DNA of 64,000 bases from Escherichia phage naswa. The notes under the pieces are model-generated. The model saw only the letters and a program-made list of their open reading frames with translations, was not told where the DNA came from and ran no database searches. Of the stretch, positions 3,314 to 47,185 are shown piece after piece (positions within the stretch are counted from its first letter, which is position 1; every line of letters starts with the position of its first letter). The translations under genes and the position numbers were made by a program. The DNA lies in the sequence record MN850595.1. One strand, 5' to 3'.

Positions 3314-3577
3314 TTAGAAACCCTCTAAAAAGCTCTTGTAGAAAATAATTTCAGTATCTACACCAGTCACGATCTTATCGTTCCTGATTTCATCTGTAAG
3401 GTAGGTGTCAAAACGCAGAACCTGTGTGGTGTTGTCACACATCCACTCAGCTGTGACCATTGCGAAAATCTTAGCATCTTCATTATCTGGTGTGAATGTT
3501 ACCACCTCACCGCACTTAAACTTTTCGATAGGCTGAGTGTTAGCTTTCGGTTCTGCGATAGTGATTTTTGTGGTCAT
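3314..3577 (-). CDS. small protein, tandem paralogue family (member 3)
   Basis: 87 aa; 'CGEVVTF' core; stop/start abuts neighbours. Confidence 0.5.
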   Translation of the reverse strand: MTTKITIAEPKANTQPIEKFKCGEVVTFTPDNEDAKIFAMVTAEWMCDNTTQVLRFDTYLTDEIRNDKIVTGVDTEIIFYKSFLEGF

Positions 3578-3840
3578 TATTCTCCTCCTTCTTTTGAATA
3601 GCTTGTCTCTCCAAGGATGGTAATTTTGGTGTCAAGCTCTGTAACTTTCATGTTTGGCGGCAGATCGTACAACTCATTATTTTCTAAATCGAACCCCCAC
3701 ACACAATGTTCTCCTGTTTTGACAATCATAACTATGTTTTGAATGCCGTCTCCGTCGCAACTTACCACGGTCCCACACGGAAAGCTGTCTGCACGCTTTT
3801 TGTTCTTCACCTTAGAATTGAATACAATGCTGGTAGCCAT
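3577..3840 (-). CDS. small protein, tandem paralogue family (member 2)
   Basis: 87 aa; starts MAT..., 'CGTVVS' core, 'ILGE' near C-terminus; overlapping stop/start. Confidence 0.55.
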   Translation of the reverse strand: MATSIVFNSKVKNKKRADSFPCGTVVSCDGDGIQNIVMIVKTGEHCVWGFDLENNELYDLPPNMKVTELDTKITILGETSYSKEGGE

Positions 3841-4103
3841 TATTGTTCCTCCACCATAACTTCGCCAATAATTTCTATGCAGGCATCCATTTCTGTAACA
3901 ACCAAACTGTGAGGTAGTTCTACAAACACCTTTCTGAACAGGTCAAATACCCCAACATATATGTTTGCAGGATGTGATTTTACAACAAGTGCTGTATTCA
4001 CATCCCCAAGTTCATCAACAAACATCACCACAGTGCCTGGAGCTACTGAGGACAGATACTTCTTAGTTTTACGGTTTGATGCAAATTTTAACTCTGTTGC
4101 CAT
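3840..4103 (-). CDS. small protein, tandem paralogue family (member 1)
   Basis: 87 aa; starts MAT..., 'PGTVVM' core, 'IIGE' near C-terminus. Confidence 0.55.
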   Translation of the reverse strand: MATELKFASNRKTKKYLSSVAPGTVVMFVDELGDVNTALVVKSHPANIYVGVFDLFRKVFVELPHSLVVTEMDACIEIIGEVMVEEQ

Positions 4104-4118
4104 AAATAACCTCCTCTC

Positions 4119-5600
4119 TTACTTAGCGTACTCGATTAATTCCACAGTTTTACCAAAGCTCGGGATATAATTTTTATTATACCCCTCAGTGAGGACCCAT
4201 AGAGTATCGTACTTTTTCCACTTGTTGTCAACAACCTTTTGTTCAAAGTTATGCTCAAAGTATAGGTCGGTCAGGACGATGACATCTTTTGCATTAGGTA
4301 TGTTGGCATCCAGATACTCGAACACGCAAGCAGCTGTTGTGCCCCATGTTGAGTGGACCTCATAGTTGATCATCTCGTCTATGTTGCCGCGAGTGTATAC
4401 TTTAACCTCTCCAACCTCAGTTGACCAACAGAACATTGTAACCTTAAACTCTTTATACAGATTGCACAATCCGGTGATTTCATTGAACATTTTCTTTAAA
4501 GTTCTTTGAGAGATCGAGCCAGAAACGTCTAAAGCCACCACAATATCTATAGTGTTTTCCGGATTACGACCAGGAACAATAACGTGCTGGTTCTTGTTTA
4601 TAGCCCCAACTTTTCGCATTGTGCTGGTCAAAGACCCAGATCGGCGACCAGGTTTTCTGTAGGTCAGTTCGGCCTTTCTTTTAGACAACATACGTTGCTT
4701 AATGATGTCTATATAGTTGATTACAGGCTTACCTCTGTTCTTGACAAACTCACGCACCGCCTCAGGGCAACGGCCTCCGGACGCTTGCATTGCTGCCTCC
4801 AGCATATCACCAGAGTCCTGCATGGCCTGATCTTTATCAGATTGGCTGATTACAGGTTGTGGCTGATCATACCCCATAGCCTTTCCAAGATTATCACTGG
4901 TGCCACCGTTCCCACTCATGTGATCATCGGTTTGTCGCTTATCACTTTGAGAGTTCTCACCTTTACCGTTCTTACTTTTACCGTTATTCTGATCTCTTTG
5001 CTTATCAAGAACTGCATAAACGTTCTCAGCAATCCATCCATGAAACTTCATGTCGCAGTAGCAGCTGGCTAAGAAGCCAAAAGGCTTACCTTTCATGAAC
5101 GTAGTGCTTTTCCCCTTCGGGAAGAAAACACAAGGGGGTTTGCTAAAGTCAACCACAAGGCCTGTGTTGATAACGTGATCACAAGCAATATTGAACAGTT
5201 CCGGCTCAAAGCTTTTACCACGGACTAGGTGATCACAGATAATATGCCCCACCTCATGTGACAGAAGGAAGGCCACCTCTTTCACAGATTTTGGGGAATA
5301 GAAAACTTCAGCCATCTCAAACTGCTCGTCAGTTAGAGAAGCCTTAAGAATAGCCTTGCGCTCATCAGCCAATCCCATAATGAACTCAGGACTGTAATAG
5401 ATGCGTTTATGGTCGGTTGCCATGGTGGAGCACCATGTGTGGTTTTCTACGAACTGCAACCCTGACAGTAGTGTGCCATAAAACGGCAGCTTTTCAAGGA
5501 GATACATACGTGCAGCCTGCAACATTCTCAGGGCATCATCTTTCTGCGAGGCAATGATTTCTGAACTTCTGCTATCCATTAAAACTCCAGAAGGGGCCAT
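4119..5600 (-). CDS. metallopeptidase-like (HExxH) / VWA-domain protein
   Basis: 493 aa; 'HEVGH' zinc-peptidase motif in N-terminal half; 'VALDVSGSIS' (DxSxS MIDAS-like) in C-terminal half; Gly/Ser/Asp-rich linker. Confidence 0.65.
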   Translation of the reverse strand: MAPSGVLMDSRSSEIIASQKDDALRMLQAARMYLLEKLPFYGTLLSGLQFVENHTWCSTMATDHKRIYYSPEFIMGLADERKAILKASLTDEQFEMAEVFYSPKSVKEVAFLLSHEVGHIICDHLVRGKSFEPELFNIACDHVINTGLVVDFSKPPCVFFPKGKSTTFMKGKPFGFLASCYCDMKFHGWIAENVYAVLDKQRDQNNGKSKNGKGENSQSDKRQTDDHMSGNGGTSDNLGKAMGYDQPQPVISQSDKDQAMQDSGDMLEAAMQASGGRCPEAVREFVKNRGKPVINYIDIIKQRMLSKRKAELTYRKPGRRSGSLTSTMRKVGAINKNQHVIVPGRNPENTIDIVVALDVSGSISQRTLKKMFNEITGLCNLYKEFKVTMFCWSTEVGEVKVYTRGNIDEMINYEVHSTWGTTAACVFEYLDANIPNAKDVIVLTDLYFEHNFEQKVVDNKWKKYDTLWVLTEGYNKNYIPSFGKTVELIEYAK

Positions 5601-15921: not shown

Positions 15922-16259
15922 GTTTGTGGAGAAATATCGTTAACTACGTGTGTGGCAATCCGACTCCTGAAGAGAAGGATGTTGTGATTCACGATTTTAC
16001 TAAAAGATCTCGTGAAAAAGATCTACTGCTAACAAAGGTGACTGATAAAGATCCTGCAGTAGGGGACTGGGCAGGTTTTGCGTTTACATCGGACAAATAC
16101 ACCTTTAACAAAGGTGACTACCTTGTTGTGGATTTTAACGAAGACATTGAGGGTGCTGAACCTTACTATCAAACCCTTATTGTTGCAGGGTGTGTTAATC
16201 TCTCTGCAGGTATGCACAGTTTGATTCTTTTTGAGCTTGACTCTGAAGACCTTGAGTAG
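15918..16259 (+). CDS. hypothetical protein
   Basis: Track ORF 113 aa; ATGA overlap with helicase stop. Confidence 0.45.
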   Translation: MSLWRNIVNYVCGNPTPEEKDVVIHDFTKRSREKDLLLTKVTDKDPAVGDWAGFAFTSDKYTFNKGDYLVVDFNEDIEGAEPYYQTLIVAGCVNLSAGMHSLILFELDSEDLE

Positions 16260-42891: not shown

Positions 42892-43164
42892 ATGTCAAGC
42901 TGGATTAATCAAGAAGTCGAATCACGTTTTAATGCTATTTGGGATCTCATCGAAAAAGAGGACGGAACATCAAGCCCTTATCTCAATAATCTTGAATTCC
43001 ATTTCGTGGAAGCGATGAACGCAGAACATGATCACGAAGGTGGTGCGGATGAGTTCGCTAAAGGGTATGGCTTCAACAATGCCAACGAAATGATCGAGGC
43101 GGTTGTACTCCAGGCTGAGGAAGATTATCAATTAAAAACGCTTGAATTCTGCCGCCGTAAGTAA
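42892..43164 (+). CDS. hypothetical protein
   Basis: Track ORF 90 aa. Confidence 0.5.
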   Translation: MSSWINQEVESRFNAIWDLIEKEDGTSSPYLNNLEFHFVEAMNAEHDHEGGADEFAKGYGFNNANEMIEAVVLQAEEDYQLKTLEFCRRK

Positions 43165-43224
43165 TAAGATAATGACACGGGCCAAAAGGCCCACTAATCA
43201 GAACCACACAAAGAGAGAAAGAAA

Positions 43225-43443
43225 ATGACAACCCGTAAAATTAAAGTTGTTTGCATTGAATCGACTGGGGGCGCTTTTGTAGTTGGTCAGGAATATAATG
43301 CGGTTTTAATGGGTACGGATTGGAAGGTTAAAGGCCTTAATGGTTACGAGTACGGCACTACTTGCGGCTTGCGTGGTCGAATCGGATACGTGAGTTTAGA
43401 CAATAAAGAAAAATTTGTTTTCGACACCGTTGTGAGTAAATAG
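43225..43443 (+). CDS. hypothetical protein
   Basis: Track ORF 72 aa; leader hairpin GGGCC-AAAA-GGCCC upstream. Confidence 0.5.
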   Translation: MTTRKIKVVCIESTGGAFVVGQEYNAVLMGTDWKVKGLNGYEYGTTCGLRGRIGYVSLDNKEKFVFDTVVSK

Positions 43444-43521
43444 CATGAATTGCTAAAGACTGATCTGCGAACTGCTGTATTATCAACTAATCAAAACGAA
43501 CCGCATAAAGAGGAAAACATC

Positions 43522-43929: not shown

Positions 43930-44349
43930 ATGAACATTAAATCTAATAATCCGGCATATAGCTTTGATAACGCTTTTTGTCACGGTCCGGCGGCGAAAGG
44001 ATTCGAAATCGATGGTAAACTAATTATTGTCAATGTTGACGGGGAAGAGGTTGCAGTATATCCGGTGGCAGACGTTAAAAGCCGTCTACAATGCCGCATG
44101 GATGTTACCGCCTATCAGCTTGATCCGGTCCGCATAGTTGCCCTGGTCCTGGAAGAAGAAATTAAAGCCATGCACCATAGCAACAGATTTATTGGTGACG
44201 CGCAGGATAATATGAAAGTATGCCGCCATAAAGTTAATGAAGTGCTTAAAGAGTACGGCTATAAAGATCTTATGATCAAACGCGAGGAAAAATTCCGCTA
44301 CCGTAACGACCTGGCAAATCGGATTTTTGAAATATACGAATCATTATAA
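43930..44349 (+). CDS. hypothetical protein
   Basis: Track ORF 139 aa; last gene of plus-strand arm. Confidence 0.5.
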   Translation: MNIKSNNPAYSFDNAFCHGPAAKGFEIDGKLIIVNVDGEEVAVYPVADVKSRLQCRMDVTAYQLDPVRIVALVLEEEIKAMHHSNRFIGDAQDNMKVCRHKVNEVLKEYGYKDLMIKREEKFRYRNDLANRIFEIYESL

Positions 44350-44367
44350 TTTTTTAACTGAATTATC

Positions 44368-44393
44368 AAGGGGCTTAGGCCCCTTTCTTTTTG
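44368..44393 (+). terminator. rho-independent terminator
   Basis: AAGGGGC-TTAG-GCCCCTT hairpin then TCTTTTTG. Confidence 0.6.
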
Positions 44394-44399
44394 TCTGCT

Positions 44400-46840
44400 C
44401 TTCCCCCCCTACCATAAACGGCCCTACCTGGCAAGTGGAATAATTGACGAGCCATCAATCCCACACACTGTACAAATATACATGGAAAATAACTATTGCA
44501 TAATTTTTCATTGTGTGGTAGCAAGGCCATTTTTACCCGTTTTACCTTCCAAAATTGCACGTAATGCCGCTATTGCACAAATTTTAACCTGATGCACATC
44601 TCCAATATCTTGTCAACAACTAAAAATCTTTATAAGTCATGCACTTACATAACCACAAAAGCGTGTTCTACGTGAAAAATCGAGTATAACTATAGCCGCC
44701 AGATCTCAGAATTTACGTACGCTCACCAGTCTATAGCCTGCTAAGTATTTATTCCAACCATAGAATAACGGAATAGTCAATACCTGCATAAAATAATTAT
44801 TCGTGTAAACTGCATAACATAAATCGGCTAGGATGTCAACATTTTTCGTAAACAGCTCGAAATTATAACGGTGAGTTATAATAAACAGAGAAATCTTTAG
44901 TCGTCTAATGTTTACTGTACATTACTATACTGACTGGAATCATTAGATGACTAAGAGAAAGATAAGAAATCATTAACAATGCAATTGTTTTATTCGTAAC
45001 AATAAGGCAACTATGCAAACGAATGGCATGGCGCGACGGAGTCGCGACATAATATAAAAGCAGTAACCATCACCCCCGTGATAGTTTGTCTGCAAACTAT
45101 TAATCAGATCATAGTTGCCTTGTATTTAGTTAATCATGACATAACAAGCAGGGCAACTATAGATCTGCTAATAGTTGCCCTGCTTTTATATTATGTCATG
45201 CTAATTATAATCAGTGCGATTATTGTCATGTATAATTATTGTCATGCAAACGAATGGCATGGCTGATTATCGGTGTGTAAACAGTCAATCATGTAAATGG
45301 TTAGCATGTGAACAATCAGGAATGTAAACAATCCAGTGTGTAAACTAATAGGTGTGTAAAAGTGTCATGTTGTGTCAGTTAGGTCACATTATGTCAGACA
45401 AGTTTTTCTCCTCTTTGTCAAGTGCTGCATGAAAAATTTACAAGCTTGTATGGTAGCATTTTTGCGGCCCTGTTTACATTCAGGAGTGTATGTATAATCC
45501 TTGGTGTGTGGGCGTTTAGACGTCTAGACGGTTGGAAGTATGCAGGTCAATATCTAATCTATTGGCTGCTAACTATATCCCACACAAATGATAAGAAATA
45601 TAATTGTTATATGCGTAAACTGTAACTCATGTTATCAATCCCTGTATGTATCGCCAGTGGTGCGCATAATGGGTATTATGTTAAATTGCCCGTAATGATA
45701 ACTATTCTCACAATGATAGGTATTCTCATTCACCCCCACAAGATAGGTTGCAAATGTTGTGCCACTGTGTGAACGGCCTAGCCTATTAATTTGCCTCACT
45801 GCCTTGATATTTGAGAATTGTTATAAGAATGAGAAGTATTCCCATTTCGTCCGCCTGGCAGCACTCCAGTCGCTACCGGCTCCTGACAGGGCAGCTCTCC
45901 TGTAGGTCAGGTCAAAATCGTGGTAGAATTGGGCCTATTCAGATATTTCTGGCTGACTCTTCAGGTCTGTGTGAGAAAAGCCAACCTTTCCGGCGGCGGG
46001 GAGGGGTCAATTAAAAAATTTACGTGGTGTATGAAGCGCTCTTCAGGTAAGGCAGGTATTATGTGATGAAACCCTCTTCAGGCAATGATATTTGTGGGTG
46101 TGATATTTGCTGGAAAGCCAGATATGACGGGACTCCCGGCGGGGCAGGGGTAGTACAGACAGGGAAAATATGGGGGATGTAGTTGGGGAAATTGATCAGG
46201 CAGGTAGAGTATGGAATATGTTACAAGTATGTTAAATATGGAGGTTGAATATCTGCAGGATTTGTGTGTAAAATCAAAGACTTAAGTGGTGTTGTGGTAT
46301 TTTCTATAAATAATTCAAGTTTAATAGGTAATATTTGTCTCTATCCACTTTGTGTGGTAAACAGATTCAGATGAAATTGGTTTACAAGTGTATACATAAT
46401 ATACAAATTAAAGATACAAGAAACCCCCCTCCCCCTTCGGCTACCATTCACCTTTTCCTCTGACTGGTACTTAAACACTTATTCAGACTCTTCAGGTTAT
46501 CACCCATATATCATATGGCAGTGACTGGTGTCCTCCGGCCCCTCTTTCGTCACCCGTCCGCTTCGCCATGCTAATGCCATAGCCAATGGTTCGGTTGTTC
46601 ACCCTGTTCACTCAGGTGTATCTCCATACCCCTTCAAACCGAAGAGAACAGAAAACCCGAATTACTCGGTAAAAGAAAAGAGAAGAACTTAATTTTATCA
46701 GGATAGGCAAGAATGTCAAGGCATGACTGCTCACTAAACAAGCAAACAGTCATGTGTGGTAGGTAAGTGATTGTGGTGGTAGGAAATTTAGTTGAAAGAT
46801 GTGTTATAGGTGCGCTTCCAGCACTTTAGCCGGGCAGCTA
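44400..46840. other. ~2.4-kb non-coding convergence region with several repeat families (candidate origin / packaging / terminus region)
   Basis: No long co-directional ORF; 20-bp direct repeat at 45013 and 45244; ATAGTT(G/T) palindromes 45082-45182; six TGTAAAC-like iterons 45276-45361; CTCTTCAGG x5 from 45957. Confidence 0.5.
45276..45361. repeat. six iteron-like repeats (TGTAAAC core, 14-17 bp period)
   Basis: Cores at 45276, 45293, 45307, 45323, 45339, 45355. Confidence 0.5.
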
Positions 46841-46848
46841 ATTGTGTG

Positions 46849-47064
46849 TCAGTCTAGCGGTTCATCCTCTACTTCACTGAAATCAATGTTCATGGTCTCT
46901 TCCCAACCATCGATCTCAGCACAAGAGTGGAGTTCTTTAGGGTTTACTCCCAAAGCCTCAGCAACAGAGTCTATATTTAACACCTCTGGCAGGTATGATT
47001 CATCGAATTCAAGGTAAATCAGGCCACGAGTGTTGTCAGCTCCACCAAATATCTCTATCTTCAT
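46849..47064 (-). CDS. hypothetical small protein
   Basis: Track ORF 71 aa; starts MKIEIF like other small proteins on this arm. Confidence 0.45.
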   Translation of the reverse strand: MKIEIFGGADNTRGLIYLEFDESYLPEVLNIDSVAEALGVNPKELHSCAEIDGWEETMNIDFSEVEDEPLD

Positions 47065-47185
47065 AAAATCTCCTCTGGGAATGAGAGTGTGAACAGGGTT
47101 TTATACGTTCCAATGCACAAGAATTATACACGTTTGCCTCTTCAGGCCATGCTTTAGCATGAGGAACCTGTGTGGGCTCGGTGCT

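Follow-up and report, generated by a model that had tools for sequence, protein, structure and literature searches.

A 459-bp direct terminal repeat marks a probable chromosome-end junction in the gene-free gap of the rV5-like phage naswa

The window analyzed here is a 64,000-nucleotide stretch of the Escherichia phage naswa genome (record MN850595.1), and the subject of this work is the gene-free gap at positions 44350–46848 of the window, which contains a homologue (45397–45855) of a 459-bp direct terminal repeat (DTR) that several related phages carry at each end of their records. A megablast search with positions 44350–46850 returned 121 phage records with 88–98% identity, all of them Vequintavirus, which identifies the window as belonging to an rV5-like myovirus of this genus; the rV5 record is oriented as the reverse complement of the window. 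The gap separates two converging gene arms. The left arm ends with a plus-strand homologue of rV5 ORF164 (43930–44349, stop at 44349), and the right arm with a minus-strand homologue of rV5 ORF163 (46849–47064, stop at 46849); both genes fall into PHROGs of unknown function. An intrinsic terminator of the left arm, consisting of a 7-pair GC-rich stem and a T-run, is located 19 nt past the stop at 44349 (44368–44385, plus strand) and is also annotated in the Alma, Murica, and EdH4 records. A preliminary description, made from the sequence alone, had proposed a 2.4-kb non-coding convergence zone in which both arms terminate, and this zone is real. The rV5 genome paper shows the same interval as a grey box labelled non-coding, without ORFs and with no function assigned; its authors noted a skew change at the box and expected bidirectional terminators there, which were not found.

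The evidence for the terminal repeat comes from the records of close relatives. In the EdH4 record, the first 459 nt repeat the last 459 nt, and both map over their full length to 45397–45855 of the window with 95% identity. The repeat_region annotated at the end of the Gotham record maps to the same positions. In at least 11 records, coming from several laboratories, the DTR unit forms the very end of the sequence, at two recurrent positions inside the gap, and it is present at both ends in five records (EdH4, HdK5, YN3, Gotham, and ECP2309), while the window and most other records contain a single internal copy. The repeats of HdK5, EdH4, and Gotham are 95–97% identical to the naswa unit and have identical boundaries. 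The DTR of these close relatives has been described (Korf et al. and Dias et al.; PMC6563267 and PMC7471380): the terminal redundancies of EdH4 and HdK5 were given as 458 bp (Korf 2019), and for Gotham (459 bp), the "same specific start sequence" was reported.

Two further genomes contain duplications at this place. Shigella phage CM1 has a 523-bp tandem duplication (3505–4550 of its record) with identical copies, each composed of 64 nt of upstream flank and the 459-bp unit, and the end of the duplication falls exactly at ...CGTCCGCC. Either faulty assembly at the chromosome ends or a real duplication of the junction can explain this. In I29 (ON286975, 104224–105275), the 459-nt query matches as two pieces within 1,052 bp; at this level of matching, a similar duplication is suggested.

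Since positions 45397–45855 correspond to the repeat at both ends of the relatives' records, the gap is very probably the junction of two physical chromosome ends, which are joined through one DTR copy in concatemers and in circular-looking assemblies. The right end of the virion chromosome would, with high confidence, be formed by about 1 kb of unique non-coding DNA (44386–45396) and the DTR, and the left end, in all probability, by the DTR and another 1 kb or so of unique non-coding DNA (45856–46848). Among the functions proposed in the preliminary description, the packaging or terminus option is therefore borne out by the DTR homologue, and the repeats flagged there directly adjoin the left cut. 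The term "convergence zone" is also correct; however, in the virion it would denote two chromosome ends rather than one 2.4-kb region.

The boundaries of the repeat can be seen in an alignment of 17 phages, in which the constraint was measured as the fraction of substitution-variable columns, with the third codon positions of flanking genes as a neutral proxy. In the DTR, 23% of columns are variable and indels are almost absent. In the 133 nt to the left of it, 77% of columns are variable, and in the 63 nt to the right, 71%, both with many indels. The left switch from hypervariable to invariant sequence takes place exactly at 45396/45397 (...TGTCA/GACAAGTTTT) in all 17 phages. The right switch is located about 12 nt past 45855: the sequence is conserved through ...CGTCCGCC/TGGCAGCACTCC and then collapses into a hypervariable patch (45868–45930) of CTCCTGTAGGTC and CTCCAGTCGCTACCGGCTCCTGACAGGGC modules, where 89% of the columns are gapped in some phage.

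Similar short sequences are found at the two boundaries. The proposed left cut site, TGTCA/GACAA (45392–45401, top strand, cut at 45396/45397), is the DTR start in EdH4 and Gotham and is invariant in 17 of 17 phages. The proposed right cut site, TGCCA/GGCGG (45851–45860, bottom strand, cut at 45856/45855), is an inverted copy of the left one and is conserved in 16 of 17 phages, the exception being rV5 with TGCCT. In the register preset by the DTR ends, the two sites share six of ten identities and ten of ten purine/pyrimidine matches. Their common form, TGYCA/GRCRR, has inverted orientation at the two cuts, and nicks of this polarity would leave 5' overhangs suitable for fill-in. TGYCA directed toward the cut occurs about 3 times per 80 nt on the left and about 1.4 times on the right, versus 0.22 expected, and is almost absent in the opposite orientation; each of the 17 phages has from one to five cut-directed copies at the left cut. 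Because both the conservation breakpoints and the inverted nick motif fall at the boundaries given for the repeat in records and papers, these boundaries appear to be real and not a convention of record deposition.

Several points weigh against a fixed-end junction. The evidence for naswa consists of homologues that are 95% identical in the DTR and not of measured naswa termini. The match of the cut motif has p ~0.001 at the purine/pyrimidine level and concerns one pair of sites; the support from phage KPP-1, considered below, is limited to the layout and the coordinates given in its paper; and sequence is the only source from which roles are inferred below for the 20-bp box, the arrays, and the nick motif. 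In the rV5 paper, circular permutation of the genome was deduced from a shotgun assembly and a size estimate by pulsed-field gel electrophoresis, with the termini unmapped. PhageTerm called the bov phages circularly permuted (PMC8407724), and BpE1AUH was said to possibly package by the headful mechanism (PMC13211470). The last three statements, as well as the possible re-orientation of some records to match EdH4, would favor a circularly permuted genome and headful packaging that starts at a pac site within the zone, the 459-bp "repeat" being a convention of assembly or re-orientation. Such an explanation is very improbable. Two laboratories independently report fixed ends with a repeat of 458 or 459 bp, and for KPP-1 and PBES-2, there are two-fold coverage or PhageTerm short-DTR calls. 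The permuted calls come from assembly or from Nextera data, which are unable to reveal termini; the bov phages were sequenced from Nextera libraries, in which, as the PhageTerm authors state, termini are lost. In addition, both boundaries are discrete and common to independent records, which does not fit a pac site, and a convention would not yield conservation breakpoints and an inverted nick motif at the reported boundaries.

Two short papers already document the DTR itself, as do several GenBank records. We did not meet its link with the "non-coding" box of rV5 in the published notes, which give the repeat length only. What is new here is descriptive: the points at which conservation breaks, the arrays with their variable copy number, the inversion of the nick site, and the cruciform that can be dispensed with.

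The absence of credible ORFs in the gap, also claimed in the preliminary description, is confirmed by codon periodicity, ORF integrity, and PHROG comparisons, which all agree and rule out hidden genes. The flanking genes, intact in 14–17 of the 17 phages, have their substitutions concentrated at the third position of codons (p = 1e-5 to 1e-16). None of the 14 ORFs of at least 40 aa within 44375–46734 has third-position periodicity (p = 0.25–1.0), most of them are interrupted in at least some relatives, and the six longest have no PHROG match. A search for RNA genes in the gap found no tRNA and no Rfam 15 match, either at the gathering score or at E ≤ 1. Despite being non-coding, the gap is shown by the alignment to be under purifying selection: 19–29% of the columns are variable in most of it, versus 46% at third codon positions and 8.6% at codon positions 1 and 2 of the flanking genes. 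In the unique DNA at 44386–44996, internal to the right-end repeat copy, 28% of columns are variable, and there is neither periodicity nor an intact ORF. These values make it hardly credible that the zone consists of decayed genes or of neutral spacer between converging operons with repeats arisen by chance. Small scattered ORFs have been called here by some annotators, as one would expect of decayed genes; however, the calls differ between records and lack coding periodicity, the constraint is about twice that of third codon positions and in one block exceeds that of codon positions 1 and 2, and the repeats are far beyond chance.

The repeats are concentrated in the left part of the gap (44997–45396), where all the families listed in the preliminary description were recovered. 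Exact plus-strand copies of the 20-bp box ATGCAAACGAATGGCATGGC are located at 45013–45032 and 45244–45263 and are the sole two in 64 kb. All 17 phages retain one copy or both, and the second, located where the variable arrays begin, is a candidate recognition site. The ATAGTT(G/T) palindromes are represented by ATAGTTGCC/GGCAACTAT at 45006, 45111, 45152, and 45171 and by ATAGTTTG...CAAACTAT at 45081–45102. Units of the ATAGTTGCC/GGCAACTAT type within an 18-nt outer inverted repeat make up a nested palindrome of about 150 nt (45046–45197), a potential cruciform or hairpin, with perfect inverted repeats of 15 nt (45146/45171) and 18 nt (45046/45180). As single-stranded DNA, positions 45033–45243 fold into one large hairpin of −46.1 kcal/mol, versus −16.5 ± 2.7 kcal/mol for shuffled sequences (z = −10.9). 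The palindrome is near-invariant in 16 phages and deleted in FV3, whose clean 231-bp deletion (window 45033–45263) is the exact product of recombination between the two 20-bp boxes, so that the whole palindrome is gone. V18 has a different, partial deletion in this region, and rV5 and A147 have a 33-nt insertion after window position 45141. Since FV3 is viable without it, the palindrome can be regarded as a putative accessory element.

The second box is followed by two arrays. The TGTAAAC-type array (45274–45362, plus strand; period of about 16 bp) contains six units in naswa, at 45276–45361, with a spacing of 15–16 bp. It belongs to the patch with 77% variable columns and frequent indels, and the copy number of its iterons ranges from about 2 (CM1, Wec189) to about 12 (rV5, Murica) in relatives that are about 95% identical elsewhere. 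The TGTCATG/TGTCAG repeats are found at 45194–45396, and a (T/G)GTCA array with a 10-bp period (45363–45396, plus strand) stops exactly at the left cut. The order of elements (20-bp box, GTAAAC-type array, TGTCA array, cut) is fixed. Relative to an even spread over the 64-kb window, there are 6 copies of TGTAAAC versus 0.7 expected, 4 of ATAGTTGCC versus 0.2, and 5 of TGTCATG versus 0.4; these motifs are enriched 8- to 20-fold over the rest of the window. An attempt to unite the palindromes and iterons into one site family (MAACWRT) gave 8 sites versus 0.76 expected; yet only 2 of the 6 iterons of the window fit it, and the support for such a family was modest.

Clustered direct and inverted repeats in DNA with 60–74% AT, situated in the largest gene-free zone and at the skew inflection, resemble an iteron-type replication origin. 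In that case, an initiator would bind TGTAAAC and the ATAGTTGCC palindromes at 44997–45396 and melt the AT-rich DNA, possibly in coexistence with the terminus, and in phage ICP1 a late rolling-circle origin is indeed found near the genome end that also holds an ORF-less terminus region. We consider such an origin unlikely and do not favor this function for the iteron block. The iteron period of 15–16 bp is off the helical phase (about 11 or 22 bp), and the unstable iteron number is unlike that of Rep-type origins. None of the 17 phages lacks iterons or the 20-bp box entirely; the palindromes, however, are missing from the viable FV3. As transcription of both arms runs toward the zone, outgoing forks would meet it head-on. 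The maximum of the cumulative GC skew tracks gene orientation, which was also the conclusion of the rV5 authors. There is no recognizable initiator gene adjoining the zone; the PHROGs of its two neighboring genes are of unknown function. The early theta origin of ICP1 is far from its terminus.

For the chromosome-end junction, we propose packaging of the T7 type with a short DTR. The terminase, or its small subunit, would recognize the block to the left of the DTR on the concatemer junction, the best candidates for recognition being the 20-bp box, of which every phage retains a copy, and the TGTCA array with its helical phasing. The top strand would be nicked after TGTCA (45396/45397) and the bottom strand after TGCCA (45856/45855). 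The resulting 459-nt 5' overhangs would be filled in from the recessed 3' ends, giving a DTR at both ends of each packaged genome, and the repeat arrays outside the cuts would be free to expand and contract. The large terminase gene should be located outside the window, judging by coordinate mapping to rV5; in rV5, this gene is split by introns (rV5 genome paper).

On the opposite side of the DTR, a strongly constrained element of the gap is found. A block of about 260 nt (46424–46685, minus strand), putatively a non-coding transcript, has 5.9% variable columns versus 8.6% at codon positions 1 and 2 of the flanking genes and is at least 99% identical in 86 records. It is preceded by a near-consensus sigma-70 promoter, TTGACA-16 nt-TG-x-TAAAAT (46692–46719, minus strand), which agrees with the consensus at 11 of 12 positions, has the extended TG in addition, and faces the DTR. 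In the IMGVR9 locus, about seven spacer positions of the promoter are changed, with the −35, TG, and −10 elements intact. A transcript of the block would be purine-rich and end with G5AG6 (C6TC5 on the plus strand, 46424–46435), and on its 3' side in the minus-strand sense, there is an AT-rich (72–76%) variable segment (46260–46410). In the metagenomic locus L030 (86% identical), the unit containing the block is sharply bordered, with about six changes over about 350 nt, and the AT-rich DNA past the C-run is nearly unalignable.

A long non-coding transcript across the whole gap is not indicated, whereas this block, discrete and placed behind a promoter, has the look of a transcription unit. 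It could be the one element of the gap that hides something new. A tentative and decidedly improbable reading is that positions 46424–46775 represent a previously undescribed phage non-coding RNA (ncRNA) gene, about 0.6–0.8 kb inside one chromosome end, whose transcript, running toward the DTR, would form a persistent RNA–DNA hybrid that either primes DNA synthesis, as at a CSB2- or ColE1-like origin serving a T7-like replisome, or drives processing of the concatemer junction coupled to transcription. Such a gene would comprise a conserved upstream region with the sigma-70 promoter and, with the same low probability, an RNA of about 260 nt stopping at G5AG6 next to the AT-rich DNA. That the zone as a whole mainly consists of one or more structured ncRNAs, for example a large phage ncRNA, seems quite unlikely. 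Non-coding but constrained DNA (19–29% variable columns versus 46% for the neutral proxy) and an almost invariant block behind a conserved promoter are what this explanation predicts; however, there is no Rfam match at E ≤ 1 for the zone or for the block, the folding of the block shows no thermodynamic signal (z = −0.9 and −0.1 on the two strands), and the variation is too low for a covariation test. Elsewhere in the zone, only weak promoter matches were found (15 versus 10.5 expected), and the strongest structure is the dispensable DNA palindrome. The block also has no coding signal. In blastn searches with the whole gap and with the block, no real match was obtained beyond Vequintavirus, neither in other phage genera nor in E. 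coli.

Other elements of the gap can be noted. About 16–40 nt past the predicted transcript start, CCGAGTAATTCGG and a T-run after it (46647–46669, minus strand) make up a weak hairpin of the terminator type, which could act either as terminator of the right gene arm or as attenuator of the transcript made from the promoter itself. Four copies of CTCTTCAGG in the same orientation (plus strand; 45957, 46039, 46074, and 46488, spanning 45957–46496) occur amid G-runs and resemble binding sites. With a fifth copy at 47138, five of the six copies in 64 kb are within 1.3 kb to the right of the DTR; the remaining one is at 15966 on the minus strand. The four copies are conserved over the aligned phages except for one substitution in one copy of FV3. 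KPP-1 carries CCTCTTCAGG near its repeat. Inverted pairs of the CCCACAC/GTGTGGG type are found at 44461–44518 and 45504–45587, and TGTGTGGTA occurs three times (44512, 46351, and 46753), every copy of the window being inside the gap. These pairs and TGTGTGGTA may constitute another, putative, family of binding sites.

Divergent relatives of the gap are scarce. An IMG/VR search anchored on the flanking gene gave three loci only, and scans with 20-mers gave five vequintavirus-related loci (four metagenomic and one from IMG/VR), the sole usefully divergent one being L030; four further metagenome matches were rejected as chance. A literature search found no transcriptome or replication time course of a vequintavirus. 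Among the GenBank records, the MG0656xx series includes 18 or 19 phages labelled as Campylobacter phages (e.g., "UNVERIFIED: Campylobacter phage A147"), which are 88–96% identical to E. coli rV5-like phages over the gap and are classified as Vequintavirus; judging by these sequences, the host label is probably wrong. In the gene slot just upstream of the gap (43150–43500), the identity of naswa to 16 relatives falls to about 0.12, which looks like a swapped or inserted cassette of small genes.

The rV5-like phages are common candidates for therapy and biocontrol, and current descriptions of the group's type genome have it circularly permuted and leave its "non-coding" box unexplained. Exact cut positions at the probable chromosome-end junction would fix the orientation of these genomes and the way they are compared. 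The junction also accounts for assemblies that break or duplicate here, as in CM1 and I29, marks safe and unsafe sites for engineering, and lets the contradictory PhageTerm calls be explained as an artefact of Nextera libraries. In addition, it provides testable candidate sites of terminase recognition and nicking for a large myovirus that would package its DNA like T7, and the analysis singles out a 260-nt block with a constraint stronger than that of the neighboring proteins.

As for known systems, RNA II of ColE1 is an R-loop/G-tract primer element. The mitochondrial conserved sequence block 2 (CSB2; G5AG7 or G6AG7 with a T-tract) resembles the naswa block in that a promoter-driven RNA would end with G5AG6 and be followed by U-rich or AT-rich sequence; the phage replisome, like the mitochondrial one, is T7-like (rV5 genome paper). 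Unlike CSB2, the naswa tract has 11 guanines, the U-tract is lost in L030, and the host RNA polymerase is multisubunit. Since tracts of no more than 11 guanines gave only basal termination with POLRMT, the likeness to CSB2 should be considered a weak lead by analogy. Iteron-type origins (lambda ori, plasmid Rep, PLE RepA_N) share with naswa clustered direct repeats in non-coding AT-rich DNA; in naswa, however, the repeats are not in helical phase and are unstable in number, and transcription is convergent, not divergent. The DNA polymerase of ICP1 is among the closest homologues of that of rV5 (rV5 genome paper). In this myovirus, too, a gene-free stretch (1.3 kb, gp1–gp2) holds the packaging terminus, with the late origin nearby; the likeness concerns the layout, and ICP1 uses headful packaging from a pac site according to PhageTerm, not a fixed-end DTR.

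Other short repeats are known in the subfamily or a related group: 514 bp in KPP-1, 443 bp in PBES-2, and 328 bp in the phAPEC8-like phage Schickermooser. The KPP-1 repeat was shown by two-fold coverage and the PhageTerm "T7 type" call and, as in naswa, lies inside a gap between converging arms. A global alignment of the KPP-1 and naswa repeats is not significant (z = 0.7), and sequence homology of the DTR across genera is not claimed. Between EdH4, HdK5, or Gotham and naswa, nothing essential differs; the published notes on these three phages do not mention the flanking arrays, the symmetry of the nick sites, or the conserved block. A comparable known mechanism is that of T7 and T3, with short exact DTRs (160 and 231 bp) produced by staggered nicks and fill-in. 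Unlike T7, naswa is a myovirus of 137 kb that lacks an RNA polymerase of its own, and its genes on both sides are read toward the ends and not inward from the left end. Its DTR has three times the length, non-coding DNA takes up about 1 kb at each end, its arrays vary widely in copy number, and its palindrome is dispensable, as FV3 indicates. Like T7 and T3, it would have fixed ends and one copy of the repeat at the junction. T7 reportedly has short-repeat arrays just inside each DTR copy, a promoter that is said to read through the junction, and a DTR-adjoining inverted repeat that is said to form a hairpin intermediate; the arrays, the promoter, and the inverted repeat of naswa are analogous to these elements.

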